Part shown: piece by piece, positions 61,211 through 63,642 of the stretch | Layout of the letters: the number at the start of each line of letters is the position of its first letter | How positions within the stretch are numbered: the first letter of the stretch is position 1 | Assembly: GCA_038211695.1 (NCBI GenBank) | Contig: JBBQVH010000007.1 | Location: 34,647-98,646, forward strand | Reading direction: 5' to 3' | Source of the DNA: Blastocatellia bacterium | Lineage (GTDB): Bacteria; Acidobacteriota; Blastocatellia; RBC074 | DNA length: 64,000 nt | The notes under the pieces: generated by a model | What the model was told of the DNA's origin: nothing | Seen by the model: the letters and a program-made list of their open reading frames with translations, nothing else | Databases searched by the model: none | Made by a program: the position numbers and the translations under genes

Positions 61211-61316
61211 TCAAAACACAGGCTCGGCCAGTTTCGCCAGCACCGCCGCTGAAACCTTCTCGACATCCGCGTGCAGCGAATTGCCGTGTGCGCCCATCGT
61301 GACGATGGCCGGAAAC
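61211..61316 (-). pseudogene. duplicated, diverged copy (~88% identity) of the last ~35 codons of the class I fumarate hydratase gene
   Basis: 61211-61316 aligns with 62119-62226; translates (minus) to ...HGNSLHADVEKVSAAVLAKLAEPVF* versus genuine ...HGNSLHADVEKASAAVLAKLGEPVF*. Confidence 0.6.
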
Positions 61317-61339
61317 GCTCAATGATTCTCACTGGCAAA

Positions 61340-61633
61340 TCATACCCGGAGAGCCTTCTCAGGTTCGGCATTGTGGAAAGCAACTCGGCCCAATTGAATT
61401 TGCCGCAAGCGCTCATCGCAGGCCAGTTTGATCCAAGCTTGTCTGATGACGCCGACCTGCCTGCATTCGCGATCAATGGCCTGGAGCAGTTCCAGCGGAA
61501 AATCAACGCTGACGAACTGTTTGGCCAAATGCTGGCCGGTGAAGTGCTCCGACACGTCGTAGCCTTGTTCCGCCTGCTCAGCGATCTGTTCAATGTCCGG
61601 CGAGTTGCTGGCTTCAGGTTGTTTCTTGCTCAT
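61340..61633 (-). CDS. ribbon-helix-helix (CopG/BrnA-like) antitoxin-type small protein
   Basis: ...KQFVSVDFPLELLQAIDRECRQVGVIRQAWIKLA... pattern of BrnA/CopG-family antitoxins (K.VS.RLP..L...D..A...G..R...I). Confidence 0.5.
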   Translation of the reverse strand: MSKKQPEASNSPDIEQIAEQAEQGYDVSEHFTGQHLAKQFVSVDFPLELLQAIDRECRQVGVIRQAWIKLACDERLRQIQLGRVAFHNAEPEKALRV

Positions 61634-61648
61634 AGGCTTTTGCCCTTG

Positions 61649-61891
61649 TCATTGGAAGAGCGCCTTGATCAATTCTTCCCGCGACATCTCAAAGTGTTCC
61701 GCAACCTCAGCCAGAATCGCCGACAGCGTGCCGACGCGCAATGGATCATGGCAAGGGACCGTTACGTGATGCTCTCCACGCTCCGTTGTCGTCAGGCGCA
61801 TATGGCTGCCGGTTTGACGCTTGATGCCGTAGCCAAGCCTTTTCATCGCTTGCGCCAAGTCATTGCCGGACAGGTTGCGGGGCAGTTTCAT
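61649..61891 (-). CDS. hicA: type II toxin-antitoxin HicA-family mRNA interferase toxin
   Basis: LSGNDLAQAMKRLGYGIKRQTGSHMRLTTTERGEHHVTVPCHDPLRVGTLSAILAEV matches HicA/YcfA (..LGF...Q.GSH.....P.G..vTVP.H...l..GTL.sIlkqag). Confidence 0.65.
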   Translation of the reverse strand: MKLPRNLSGNDLAQAMKRLGYGIKRQTGSHMRLTTTERGEHHVTVPCHDPLRVGTLSAILAEVAEHFEMSREELIKALFQ

Positions 61892-62094
61892 GTCGCCATC
61901 ACTTCCTCTCTGACGAAATGCAGCCGAATGATGGAAGGTCCCTGTCCTTCATCGAAATGACACAGCACCGCATCGCGAATCTGCTCGCGCAAGTTCGGCA
62001 AATCATCCGCTTCGGTGAAAATCGCTTGGCCCAGTGCGCGTGCCGTAAAACCGCCTTCGGCCGCATCTTCAACCAGGAAAATCAACTCGCTCAT
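61888..62094 (-). CDS. hicB: HicB-family antitoxin N-terminal (UPF0150/RNase-H-like) domain protein, no fused DNA-binding domain
   Basis: LIFLVEDAAEGGFTARALGQAIFTEADDLPNLREQIRDAVLCHF matches HicB core (YtvviE.dedGGY.A.vPdLpGC.TqGdTleEAl.NakEAI.lHl); 4-nt ATGA overlap with hicA. Confidence 0.6.
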   Translation of the reverse strand: MSELIFLVEDAAEGGFTARALGQAIFTEADDLPNLREQIRDAVLCHFDEGQGPSIIRLHFVREEVMAT

Positions 62095-62118
62095 TTCAGC
62101 CCCTCCTTCAAACCAGAA

Positions 62119-63642
62119 TTAAAACACCGGTTCGCCCAGCTTGGCCAGCACCGCCGCCGAAGCCTTCTCGACGTCCGCGTGCAGCGAATTGCCGTGTGCG
62201 TCCATCGTCACAATGGCAGGGAAGTCCGTCACGCGCAGGTGCCACATCGCTTCGGGGATGCCGAATTCCAGCAGGTTGACGTCCAGCACTTCGTTGATGG
62301 ATTTGGCGTAATACTGCGCCGCGCCCCCGATGGCGTTCAGGTAAACCGCGCCGTGCTCTTTCATCGCGGCCAATGTTTTCGCGCCCATCCCGCCTTTGCC
62401 CATCACTGCGCGCACGCCGTAGCGTTTGATGATTTCGCCCTGATACGGCTCTTCGCGGATGCTGGTGGTCGGGCCAGCCGCTTTGATTTTGTAATTGTCT
62501 CCGTCTTTCAAAACCACCGGGCCGCAGTGGTAAAGCACTGAACCGTTCAGATCAACCGGCGGCGGATTCTTCATCAAATGAGCGTGGACGGCGTCGCGGC
62601 CCGTGTACATTTCTCCGGTGATGAGCACGACATCGCCAACTTCCAGGGTGCGGACTTGCTCTTCAGTCAGCGGCGTACGCAGAACTTTCTCTTTGCCGGT
62701 AGTGACGAATCCGCCACCTTGCGACATCTTGATTTCGGGTTGTTTTTCGTCGCGATAAAGCCAGCGTTTGATCTCGCCGGTTTTGGTATCGAGCACTACG
62801 CCCAGCCGCCGGAACGCCCAGCAATCGTAGGCCACCGAAACGAAGAAGCTCGCCGGGAGGCGATTAAGGACACCGATCTTACAACCGATCAGTGTCACGC
62901 CGCCGCCGAAGCCCATCGTGCCGATGCCGAGCGTGTTCGATGTTTGCAGAATGTAGTCTTCCAGCTTGGCCAAATCGGGATGGGGATTTACGTCGTCAAG
63001 CGTTCTGAAAAGCTGTTCTTTGGCGTTCAGATAACCTTGTGCGCGGTCACCGCCGATGCAAACGCCAAGCGCGCCCGCGCTGCATCCTTGCCCTTGCGCT
63101 TGCCAGACGGCGTGGAGCAGGCATTTGCGGATGCCATCCAGATCGCGCCCGGCTTTGCCCAAATGCGGAATCTCAGCGGGGAGCGAATATTGAATGTTCT
63201 TGTTTTCGCAGCCACCGCCTTTCAGTAGCAGTTTGACCTCGATTTCGTCTTCGCTTTCCCACTGATCAAAGTGCATCGTCGGTGTGCCCGGCCCCAGATT
63301 GTCGCTGCTGTTTTCGCCGGTCAGCGAATTGACAGAGTTCGTGCGCAGCTTGCCGCGCTTGGTCGCTTCTGCGACGGCTGCGCGAATCTCTTTTTTCATC
63401 ACCAACTGGTTCGCGCCGACGGGCGTTTTGATCTCGAAGGTCGGCCAACCGGTGTCCTGGCAGATCGGGCCTTCGTTGTCGGTGGCCATGTCAATGTTTG
63501 TGGCAATGACATTCAGCGCTTGCAGCGAACGCCCGCCCTGCTCTTCGCCCATGGCGCGGGCCATCGCACGGCGCACGTCAGGCGGCAGGTTGGTCGAAGT
63601 CTGCGTGATCAGTTGCAGCATGCTCTCGCGAAAAGCGTCCAT
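62119..63642 (-). CDS. class I fumarate hydratase / L(+)-tartrate dehydratase-type fused alpha-beta hydro-lyase
   Basis: N-terminus MDAFRESMLQLI...PICQDTGWPTFEIK... (Fe-S hydro-lyase CxnC motif region) and C-terminal beta-subunit-like half; ~507 aa; start at ATG 63642. Confidence 0.85.
   Translation of the reverse strand: MDAFRESMLQLITQTSTNLPPDVRRAMARAMGEEQGGRSLQALNVIATNIDMATDNEGPICQDTGWPTFEIKTPVGANQLVMKKEIRAAVAEATKRGKLRTNSVNSLTGENSSDNLGPGTPTMHFDQWESEDEIEVKLLLKGGGCENKNIQYSLPAEIPHLGKAGRDLDGIRKCLLHAVWQAQGQGCSAGALGVCIGGDRAQGYLNAKEQLFRTLDDVNPHPDLAKLEDYILQTSNTLGIGTMGFGGGVTLIGCKIGVLNRLPASFFVSVAYDCWAFRRLGVVLDTKTGEIKRWLYRDEKQPEIKMSQGGGFVTTGKEKVLRTPLTEEQVRTLEVGDVVLITGEMYTGRDAVHAHLMKNPPPVDLNGSVLYHCGPVVLKDGDNYKIKAAGPTTSIREEPYQGEIIKRYGVRAVMGKGGMGAKTLAAMKEHGAVYLNAIGGAAQYYAKSINEVLDVNLLEFGIPEAMWHLRVTDFPAIVTMDAHGNSLHADVEKASAAVLAKLGEPVF

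Follow-up and report, generated by a model that had tools for sequence, protein, structure and literature searches.

We analyzed a stretch of 64,000 nucleotides (64 kb) from a Blastocatellia bacterium, referred to below as the window, at a locus where the gene for class I fumarate hydratase (fumarase) is followed by three small toxin-antitoxin genes and then by a second, diverged copy of its own 3′ end. An earlier note on this DNA had described the three genes as a single hicB–hicA–ribbon-helix-helix (RHH) cassette, inserted at the end of the fumarase gene without an integrase. For comparison we used about 180 related loci from uncultured Blastocatellia relatives, which are designated by L numbers. 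The features of the locus are listed below; the diverged copy of the gene end is called the pseudo-end or stub.

62119..63642, minus strand: class I fumarate hydratase gene, 507 aa, intact (Pfam Fumerase 1.6e-67, Fumerase_C 2.3e-56)
62119..62223, minus strand: working fumarase 3′ end, 34 codons plus TAA, repeat copy 1; most likely came with the cargo
61888..62094, minus strand: gene for a candidate stand-alone HicB-fold antitoxin, 68 aa, so assigned from its predicted fold and its pairing with hicA, which it overlaps by 4 nt
61649..61891, minus strand: HicA toxin gene, 80 aa, intact (PF07927 HicA_toxin 6.5e-12, 45.8 bits, cut-off 27)
61340..61633, minus strand: orphan BrnA-like (RHH) antitoxin gene, 97 aa (NCBIfam BrnA 2e-8, below the model cut-off); brnT partner deleted
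61316..61339, minus strand: 24-nt leader from the brnA stop codon to the pseudo-end, which would hold the illegitimate junction; homologous leaders in L162 and L163
61211..61315, minus strand: pseudo-copy (34 codons and a TGA stop) of the end of the fumarase gene, repeat copy 2; displaced original end, collinear with L178
61182..61210, minus strand: original fumarase-Uma2 spacer (29 nt), now between pseudo-end and Uma2; CTATCAG...AAAGAGAGGTTT, shared with L178 (CAATCAG...AAAGAGAGGTTTT)
60369..61181, minus strand: Uma2-family endonuclease gene, the original downstream neighbour of fumarase (PF05685 2.5e-11)
58308..60353, minus strand: S9 peptidase gene; conserved distal boundary of the variable interval, found invariably downstream of fumarase in relatives (tblastn identity 70-82%)

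The duplicated end of the fumarase gene

A repeat scan and alignment identified a single two-copy direct repeat at the site, in which positions 61213-61315 and 62121-62223 match over 103 nt, without gaps, at 87% identity; no third copy was detected within the 64-kb window. The repeated segment corresponds to the final 34 codons and the stop codon of the fumarase gene. The pseudo-copy is in frame with the gene end and has kept a stop codon, TGA as compared with the TAA of the working end. Translation of the minus strand at 61211-61315 yields FPAIVTMGAHGNSLHADVEKVSAAVLAKLAEPVF, and the real gene end reads FPAIVTMDAHGNSLHADVEKASAAVLAKLGEPVF. The two copies, which align with a BLAST E-value of 9e-32, differ by 10 synonymous and 3 non-synonymous codons and share a perfectly identical run of 27 nt (62174-62200 and 61266-61292) that coincides with the most conserved stretch of functional fumarase alleles. 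They lie 908 bp apart, and the three small genes are located between them, where the earlier note had placed them. The fumarase start codon was positioned by alignment to 506-aa orthologues. The protein shows 83-91% amino acid identity to orthologues from Blastocatellia metagenome-assembled genomes (MAGs), the nearest of which (at most 91%) come from uncultured Blastocatellia (Acidobacteriota).

An independent Logan contig from another sample (L001) was found to be 100% identical and extends from the last 52 codons of hicA through brnA and the pseudo-end into Uma2, thus including both junctions of the pseudo-end. Because L001 agrees base for base across these junctions, the repeat is not an artefact of assembly. 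The duplication of the gene end reported in the earlier note is therefore real, and the bracketing of the cargo by a working gene end and a diverged pseudo-end is borne out by the repeat scan and alignment and by the collinearity with L178 that is described below.

The fumarase–S9 interval in relatives and the origin of the pseudo-end

Over the approximately 180 loci, fumarase and the S9 peptidase gene, whose orthologues carry Peptidase_S9 and Tricorn domains, are conserved neighbours, and the content of the interval between them varies greatly. The interval contains nothing in L008 and L084, a HIT gene in L083, a serine hydrolase gene in L004-L006, brnT-brnA in L013, brnA alone in L003, and a hicB-like gene with hicA in L082 and L088; other relatives have several combinations of these genes. 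The fumarase–S9 interval is a hot spot for small genes that encode toxin-antitoxin components or nucleases.

The comparison with sister genomes that the earlier note had called for revealed an empty site in L178, in which fumarase is followed after 25 nt by Uma2 and then by the S9 peptidase gene. L179 has the same fumarase-Uma2-S9 arrangement, and in this locus a 24-nt hicB-like leader (identical to that of L088 at 21 of 24 positions) is fused to the start of Uma2, a deletion scar of the islet. The stub was found at the distal edge of the hicB-like/hicA block in four carriers, namely the window and three other lineages: L162 (fumarase-hicB-like-hicA-brnA-stub-116-aa gene), L163/164 (fumarase-hicB-like-hicA, frameshifted-stub-Uma2) and L181-183 (fumarase-hicB-like-hicA-stub-S9). 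Three different genes thus lie downstream of the stub, Uma2 in the window and L163, the 116-aa gene in L162, and S9 in L181. The fumarase genes of the stub carriers differ at 27-37% of third codon positions. Since lineages this far apart carry the same stub, the event was neither recent nor private to one genome. Between the window and L162, identity is 88-90% for fumarase, 89% for the hicB-like gene, 79% for hicA and 75.5% for brnA; because the cassette genes are diverged between lineages at least as much as fumarase, the islet structure is old and not recently acquired.

The cassette is also found behind fumarase in loci of another type. In L082 and L088, which we call donor-type haplotypes, fumarase is followed by the hicB-like gene and hicA with a homologous 24-nt spacer, and there is no significant stub. 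The fumarase end, the 24-nt spacer and the hicB-like start are collinear in L007, L082, L088, L162, L163 and L181. L176, with the order fumarase-brnA-hicB-like-hicA, lacks a stub as judged from gene spacing only, and L165 has the order fumarase-brnT-brnA-hicB-like. A search for short stub remnants in six loci gave hints only in L165 (p about 0.02) and L088 (p about 0.07) and nothing in L082, L007, L003 or L013.

Which of the two gene ends in the window is the original one was decided by collinearity. The pseudo-end, the spacer behind it and the start of Uma2 align contiguously with the fumarase end, spacer and Uma2 start of L178, with 81% identity along 140 nt that span the stop codon and the spacer, so that the pseudo-end and its downstream spacer are collinear with the empty junction. 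The first bases of the spacer are also common to L181. In addition, the window pseudo-end and L178 share a rare CCT proline codon which, among the 28 functional alleles compared, is present in L178 only. Because the pseudo-end thus stands in the original context of a gene end, the stub is the displaced original terminus, and the working terminus most likely came with the cargo. Identity to the closest fumarases was tried as a criterion of nativeness and gave an ambiguous answer: against L002-L004, identity was 80-85% for the working end and 75-77% for the stub, yet the stub reached up to 89-90% against L165, L083 and L181. The collinearity with L178 settled the matter instead.

The sequence just ahead of the stub is conserved as well. 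The window, L162 and L163 share homology over the preceding 15-24 nt, irrespective of whether a brnA or a hicA stop codon comes first; the leader homologue (TGA-TYTGCC...) comes after the stop codon of brnA in L162 and after that of hicA in L163. Decay has affected the 5′ edge of the stub, which varies between lineages from about −105 to −127, and fumarase homology reaches about −127 in L181. The number of states that are unseen in 28 functional fumarase ends is 2 in the window stub, 9 in that of L163 and 15 in that of L162, and in L162 all 15 are located, by eye, in the 5′ half. The counts of synonymous and non-synonymous codon differences between working end and stub are also uneven:

Window: 10 synonymous, 3 non-synonymous
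L181: 6 synonymous, 3 non-synonymous
L163: 10 synonymous, 8 non-synonymous
L162, 5′ half: 2 synonymous, 10 non-synonymous
L162, 3′ half: 9 synonymous, 0 non-synonymous

Furthermore, the stubs of the window and L181 differ at 12.4% of sites, as compared with 36.6% of fumarase third codon positions in the codon alignment. These figures do not fit a single old duplication followed by neutral decay. The fresh segments of the stubs look like pieces of functional alleles, which suggests that the stubs are mosaics produced by later homologous exchanges between islet-bearing and islet-free haplotypes. Such crossovers inside the stub would explain the mosaic structure, the unequal decay and the three different downstream neighbours.

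Two further loci showed unusual structures in the same region. In L176, the gap between the fumarase stop codon and brnA is filled by a microsatellite (GGATTGT, five copies, 4654-4694), a further junction type at the same spot. In L094 (1515-1709), the fumarase frame departs from the normal sequence after ...VTMDAHG, within the same 105-nt region, and runs into a palindromic protein sequence (GTVPGAVATG...PVATAPGTVP) that resembles a GC-rich inverted-repeat insert; the S9 gene of this locus is truncated at its start. To judge from its sequence, L094 would represent another, distinct rearrangement whose breakpoint lies in the fumarase tail.

The cargo genes

The first gene of the cargo encodes a protein of 68 aa with no match to Pfam (E up to 10) or NCBIfam, and sequence searches of the PDB with the 68-aa, 80-aa and 97-aa proteins gave noise only. 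The 68-aa protein has 5230 homologues, and nearly all of the best 120 are also 68 aa long, so the short HicB is not the oddity for which the earlier note took it. The family comprises 2307 clusters at 50% identity, the best 150 of which are 63-167 aa in length with the domain at the C-terminal end; essentially no C-terminal extension or added DNA-binding domain was seen in these 150 clusters or in the best 120 homologues. Fusions of HicB to a DNA-binding domain of the RHH or helix-turn-helix (HTH) type are known to be common, though not found in every HicB (PMC2701414), and in this family the lack of such a domain is normal. The AlphaFold (AF2) model of the protein has a beta-beta-beta-alpha-beta arrangement with a predicted local distance difference test (pLDDT) score of 81, although only one of five models was confident. 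Its most probable PDB matches in Foldseek searches were HicB3 (6u0i_B, probability 1.00), TTHA1013 (1wv8, probability 0.98, template-modeling score 0.69) and E. coli HicB (6hpb_B, probability 0.98), with weak E-values of 0.09-0.25 for these HicB matches. Several 68-aa homologues among the matches listed are named "2-oxoisovalerate dehydrogenase" in the databases; on the basis of the structural model, the proteins so labelled are better regarded as HicB-fold antitoxin candidates.

The 68-aa gene and hicA form a self-contained mobile pair, because hicA is intact, the two genes overlap by 4 nt and they are found together in unrelated contexts. The 68-aa gene is paired with hicA in L088, L162, L170-175, L176 and L181; at least six lineages have the pair behind fumarase, and L170-175 have it within a type I restriction-modification locus. 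Apparently, HicA is an intact RNase toxin with a 68-aa partner that is free of a DNA-binding domain. In L170-L175 (for example, L170 4769-5449), the pair is 87% identical and is inserted between hsdM and hsdS; it is preceded by a DUF433 gene, with a gene for a large TIR/CHAT protein nearby, and is therefore embedded in a defence island. In L180 the hicB-like gene lies behind a UDP-glucose dehydrogenase gene, and no pseudo-end of that dehydrogenase gene comes after it, the alignment score being at the level of shuffled sequence. The E. coli HicAB system (6hpb) and the stand-alone HicB-like TTHA1013 (1wv8) resemble the pair in that a HicA toxin is joined to a small neighbour with a predicted partial RNase-H-like fold in a mobile two-gene unit. 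Unlike HicAB, however, the pair has the antitoxin gene first, and its product, of 68 aa and without an RHH or HTH domain, is missed by the Pfam HicB models and belongs to a large, mostly unannotated subfamily.

The third gene encodes a 97-aa protein that matched the NCBIfam BrnA model (NF047399) with E=2e-8 and 34 bits, as compared with a cut-off of 60, and had no Pfam match at E up to 10 and no PDB sequence match. The earlier note had suggested that this RHH protein might be a split-off part of HicB or supply the repression domain in trans, a reading that was rejected on gene context. Orthologues of the 97-aa gene in L013 and L165-169 are preceded by brnT (PF04365). The BrnT toxin gene is absent upstream of the window brnA, yet hicA and brnA are separated, from stop codon to start codon, by 15 nt (CAAGGGCAAAAGCCT) that correspond to the 3′ coding sequence of brnT in L165 and L013. 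Because brnT precedes the orthologues and a 3′ remnant of it remains in the window, the protein is probably an orphan BrnA and is not the DNA-binding domain of a split HicB. It resembles the antitoxin of BrnTA (Brucella BrnT/BrnA) in its weak match to the BrnA model and in that its orthologues have the toxin-first order typical of brnTA; it differs in that brnT is missing in the window and brnA now lies directly behind the hicA stop codon.

Taken by sequence, the cargo would therefore be two unrelated toxin-antitoxin remnants, the hicB-like/hicA pair and brnA minus brnT. The view that hicB, hicA and the RHH gene make up one cassette does not hold, given that the pair occurs behind fumarase without the RHH gene in L082, L088 and L181 and inside the restriction-modification locus of L170-175. 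In the relatives, toxin genes decay repeatedly while the antitoxin genes stay, and this applies to both hicA and brnT. The hicA gene is frameshifted in L163 (6204-6445) and L082 (7012-7250) and deleted in L165 (6204-6230) and L007 (2749-2970), with the 68-aa antitoxin gene kept in all of these, and brnT is deleted and brnA kept in the window, L162, L003 and L176.

The mode of insertion and a possible second case

No integrase or transposase gene was found in the 0.9-kb bracket, in the 14 kb scanned downstream (window 44-58 kb) or in the 4-6 kb flanks of seven haplotypes, these being cassette-bearing or empty-site relatives whose flanks were looked up. In this respect, the integrase-less mode of acquisition put forward in the earlier note is supported. 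There were also no attC-like inverted repeats at the cassette ends; with an arm distance of 120 nt, two short inverted pairs were detected, one inside the stub and one across the junction of the fumarase end and the hicB-like gene. The islet therefore differs from an integron cassette, having neither attC-like repeats at its ends nor an integrase in the DNA scanned.

The explanation that we favor, and consider probable, is 3′-end displacement by one homologous crossover in fumarase and one illegitimate join, with the displaced original end left behind as the stub. The ancestor would have had the arrangement fumarase-Uma2-S9 peptidase, and the donor DNA would have come from a related Blastocatellia lineage with the hicB-like/hicA pair directly behind fumarase. 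The first crossover would have been homologous and inside fumarase; the second join would have been illegitimate, about 105-127 nt upstream of the recipient stop codon, as in homology-facilitated illegitimate recombination. The old gene end would then have stayed beside its old neighbour as a stub of 105 bases. Because the incoming DNA supplied a working gene end, fumarase would have remained intact and no integrase would have been needed. We infer this type of recombination from observations described above, namely the collinearity with the empty site, the donor-type haplotypes, the stub in four lineages and the lack of a nearby recombinase.

Several points weigh against this explanation. The illegitimate junction, within 61316-61339, could not be located with single-base precision, and no microhomology stood out clearly there. 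The polarity of the event is deduced, and L178 could be a cured haplotype that arose by recombination between a working end and a stub rather than a naive one. No natural competence or other route of DNA uptake is known for the host organism. The synonymous bias of the window copy alone is marginal (estimated one-sided p about 0.05 under a model of neutral stub decay). Finally, because the gene orders of relatives such as L165 and L176 differ, the full history requires several further rearrangements and cannot be reconstructed. With regard to the integrase-free, end-restoring insertion put forward in the earlier note, the empty site, the four carriers and the absence of a recombinase speak for it, and what falls away is the notion that the three genes are one odd module.

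One could envision four alternatives to end displacement. The first is a Campbell-type event, in which a small circle carrying the fumarase end and the cassette integrates by a single RecA crossover in the fumarase end and duplicates exactly the homologous segment; such a circle might stem, for instance, from a loop-out between the working end and the stub in another cell, for which the 103-nt repeat at 87% identity is long enough. This scenario accounts for direct repeats with a fixed outer boundary, for a common leader in front of different downstream neighbours (Uma2, the 116-aa gene and S9) and for fresh stub segments with synonymous differences only. We nevertheless hold it to be unlikely, since there is no evidence of circles and the first circle would itself require an illegitimate join. 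The cassette genes are as diverged as the host gene and so give no sign of recent spread, and its outcome would be indistinguishable from that of a double crossover with the stub as one of the arms.

A second alternative, which we regard as somewhat less plausible again, is site-specific integration of the type seen for e14 and phage 21 in icd, by an element with an attachment site in the fumarase 3′ end, a replacement gene end of its own and a recombinase that acted in trans or was later deleted. The architecture is that of icd/icdC, in which the working end reaches into the element and a C-terminal pseudogene lies at its far side (PMC13626634), and both the 27-nt identical run and the similar stub boundary in several lineages could be taken to mark an attachment core. 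The run, however, is the most conserved stretch of functional alleles, and therefore no att function is needed to account for it. The bracket is only about 800 bp and holds three small toxin-antitoxin genes, the hicB-like/hicA pair occurs elsewhere (L170-175 and L180) without a fumarase-like site or a duplicated host-gene end, and in some relatives the cassette stands behind fumarase without a stub. We rate this model lower because no recombinase was found in the bracket, in the 14 kb scanned downstream or in the flanks of the seven haplotypes looked up.

A third alternative, that the gene end was duplicated locally by tandem duplication or slippage unrelated to the insertion and that one copy then decayed, is very improbable. 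Its one support is that L082, L088 and L176 hold the cassette without a detectable duplication. The collinearity of the stub and spacer with the fumarase-Uma2 junction of the islet-free L178 largely refutes it; moreover, the differences between the copies are mostly synonymous, unlike those expected of a decaying local copy, and the copies lie at a distance of 908 bp from each other, separated by three foreign genes, in the same structure in four lineages. As for an assembly chimera in which two strain variants of the fumarase end were joined, which might be thought of since the source is a MAG and repeats of ~100 nt at 87% can mislead assemblers, this can be dismissed in view of the 100% identity of L001 through the stub and the homologous structures in NCBI and JGI assemblies of three other lineages.

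End displacement itself has precedents. In rhs, contact-dependent inhibition (CDI) and type VI secretion system (T6SS) effector-immunity loci, C-terminal displacement and orphan arrays have been attributed to homologous and homology-facilitated illegitimate recombination (Kirchberger et al. 2017; PMC5361080, where Jackson et al. 2009 is cited). As in those loci, the fumarase locus has a conserved upstream homology anchor, an imported working 3′ end with cargo, an old end displaced downstream and no integrase. The orphan protective genes of those loci also have a counterpart, in that the window keeps the orphan antitoxin gene brnA and relatives lose toxins and keep antitoxins. Those systems are anchored in a polymorphic toxin whose tip varies, whereas the anchor here is a housekeeping enzyme with a conserved end; moreover, only 105 nt were displaced, the cargo consists of type II toxin-antitoxin modules and the host is an uncultured member of the Blastocatellia.

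Integration of e14 or phage 21 into E. coli icd leaves the C-terminal pseudogene icdC (Hill et al. 1989; PMC13626634). There, too, the inserted DNA supplies the working end, the pseudo-end is distal and the differences between the ends are mostly synonymous, and we count it as a further likeness that recombination between the two ends gives a functional chimeric gene. However, e14, a prophage of 15 kb, brings its own site-specific recombinase and has a defined att core, whereas only about 0.9 kb was inserted at fumarase, with no recombinase detected inside it or nearby. Experiments have demonstrated homology-facilitated illegitimate recombination in Acinetobacter, Streptococcus pneumoniae, Pseudomonas stutzeri and E. 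coli (de Vries and Wackernagel 2002; Prudhomme et al. 2002; Meier and Wackernagel 2003; see PMC3240628). In those experiments, as proposed for the fumarase case, one homologous anchor and one illegitimate join bring foreign DNA beside a conserved gene. The fumarase case differs in being natural, ancient and seen by comparative genomics only, and in that the join inside the anchor gene duplicates part of the anchor. The fumarase locus is thus a well-documented new example of known 3′-end displacement. It carries what had been described for polymorphic toxin loci over to an ordinary metabolic gene of a phylum about which little is known, and shows how a housekeeping gene, here that of a soil acidobacterium, can absorb a small selfish islet without being broken and without an integrase.

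A structure of mirror-image design is present at the 5′ end of rfbA (window 7913-8520), where the stop codon of rfbB overlaps a 13-codon rfbA pseudo-start. The pseudo-start (7914-7953) is 90% identical to 8481-8520, at the beginning of the intact rfbA gene (8481-9368). The insert is low in GC (39-47% as compared with 55-58%) and contains an open reading frame (ORF) for a membrane-like product of 151 aa (7992-8447). No homologue of this ORF was detectable, and the rfbA case is therefore untraceable in relatives. The earlier note had counted two events of one design in 64 kb; the structure at rfbA is indeed there, and its sequence is compatible with the process proposed for fumarase.

One could go further and propose that the pseudo-end is a portable homology arm for small islets rather than a mere scar, and that the process is general and recurrent. 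This extension is possible but tentative, and we doubt it more than we trust it. Its rationale is that, with fumarase sequence on both sides of the islet, RecA could insert or remove the islet in any related genome, whatever lies downstream. If this is true, small toxin-antitoxin and defence islets would travel without an integrase on the ends of conserved genes, and the mosaic stubs, the varied downstream neighbours and the rfbA case would be traces of that process. The locus makes it testable whether stubs later serve as recombination arms. For annotation it provides a search image, namely an intact gene terminus that has a short pseudo-copy of itself, in frame, a few hundred bases away, and it corrects two problems: proteins labelled "2-oxoisovalerate dehydrogenase" become HicB-fold antitoxin candidates, and the RHH gene becomes a probable orphan brnA.

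A promoter scan of 60300-62400 found no sigma-70-like site, and terminator-like sites were present only at chance level. Other features of the window were noted in passing. A second Uma2-family gene (57635-58531, PF05685 1.3e-38) lies directly downstream of the S9 peptidase gene, and the peptidase gene is therefore flanked by two Uma2 paralogues, both in the window and in L163. In the 3′ part of the first Uma2 gene, ~24 nt (TGTTCGGCGCGAGCGTGTTCCTG) occur in two perfect tandem copies at 60455-60505, which gives rise to a repeated EQEHARA motif in the protein. At 26635-27919 there are at least seven diverged direct repeats with a period of about 192-219 nt (three repeat families), which probably belong to a gene for a repeat-domain protein. 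Just upstream of fumarase, a long imperfect palindrome (ggagtgctgcgac...gtcgcactcc) occupies 63770-63930, and a 40-nt sequence (CTCTGCG...CTCTGCGGTGAA) occurs at 9513-9552 and again at 55569-55608, 46 kb apart and with 80% identity. Judging from their sequences, the palindrome and the 40-nt repeat may be intergenic elements that resemble repetitive extragenic palindromic (REP) sequences or miniature inverted-repeat transposable elements (MITEs).

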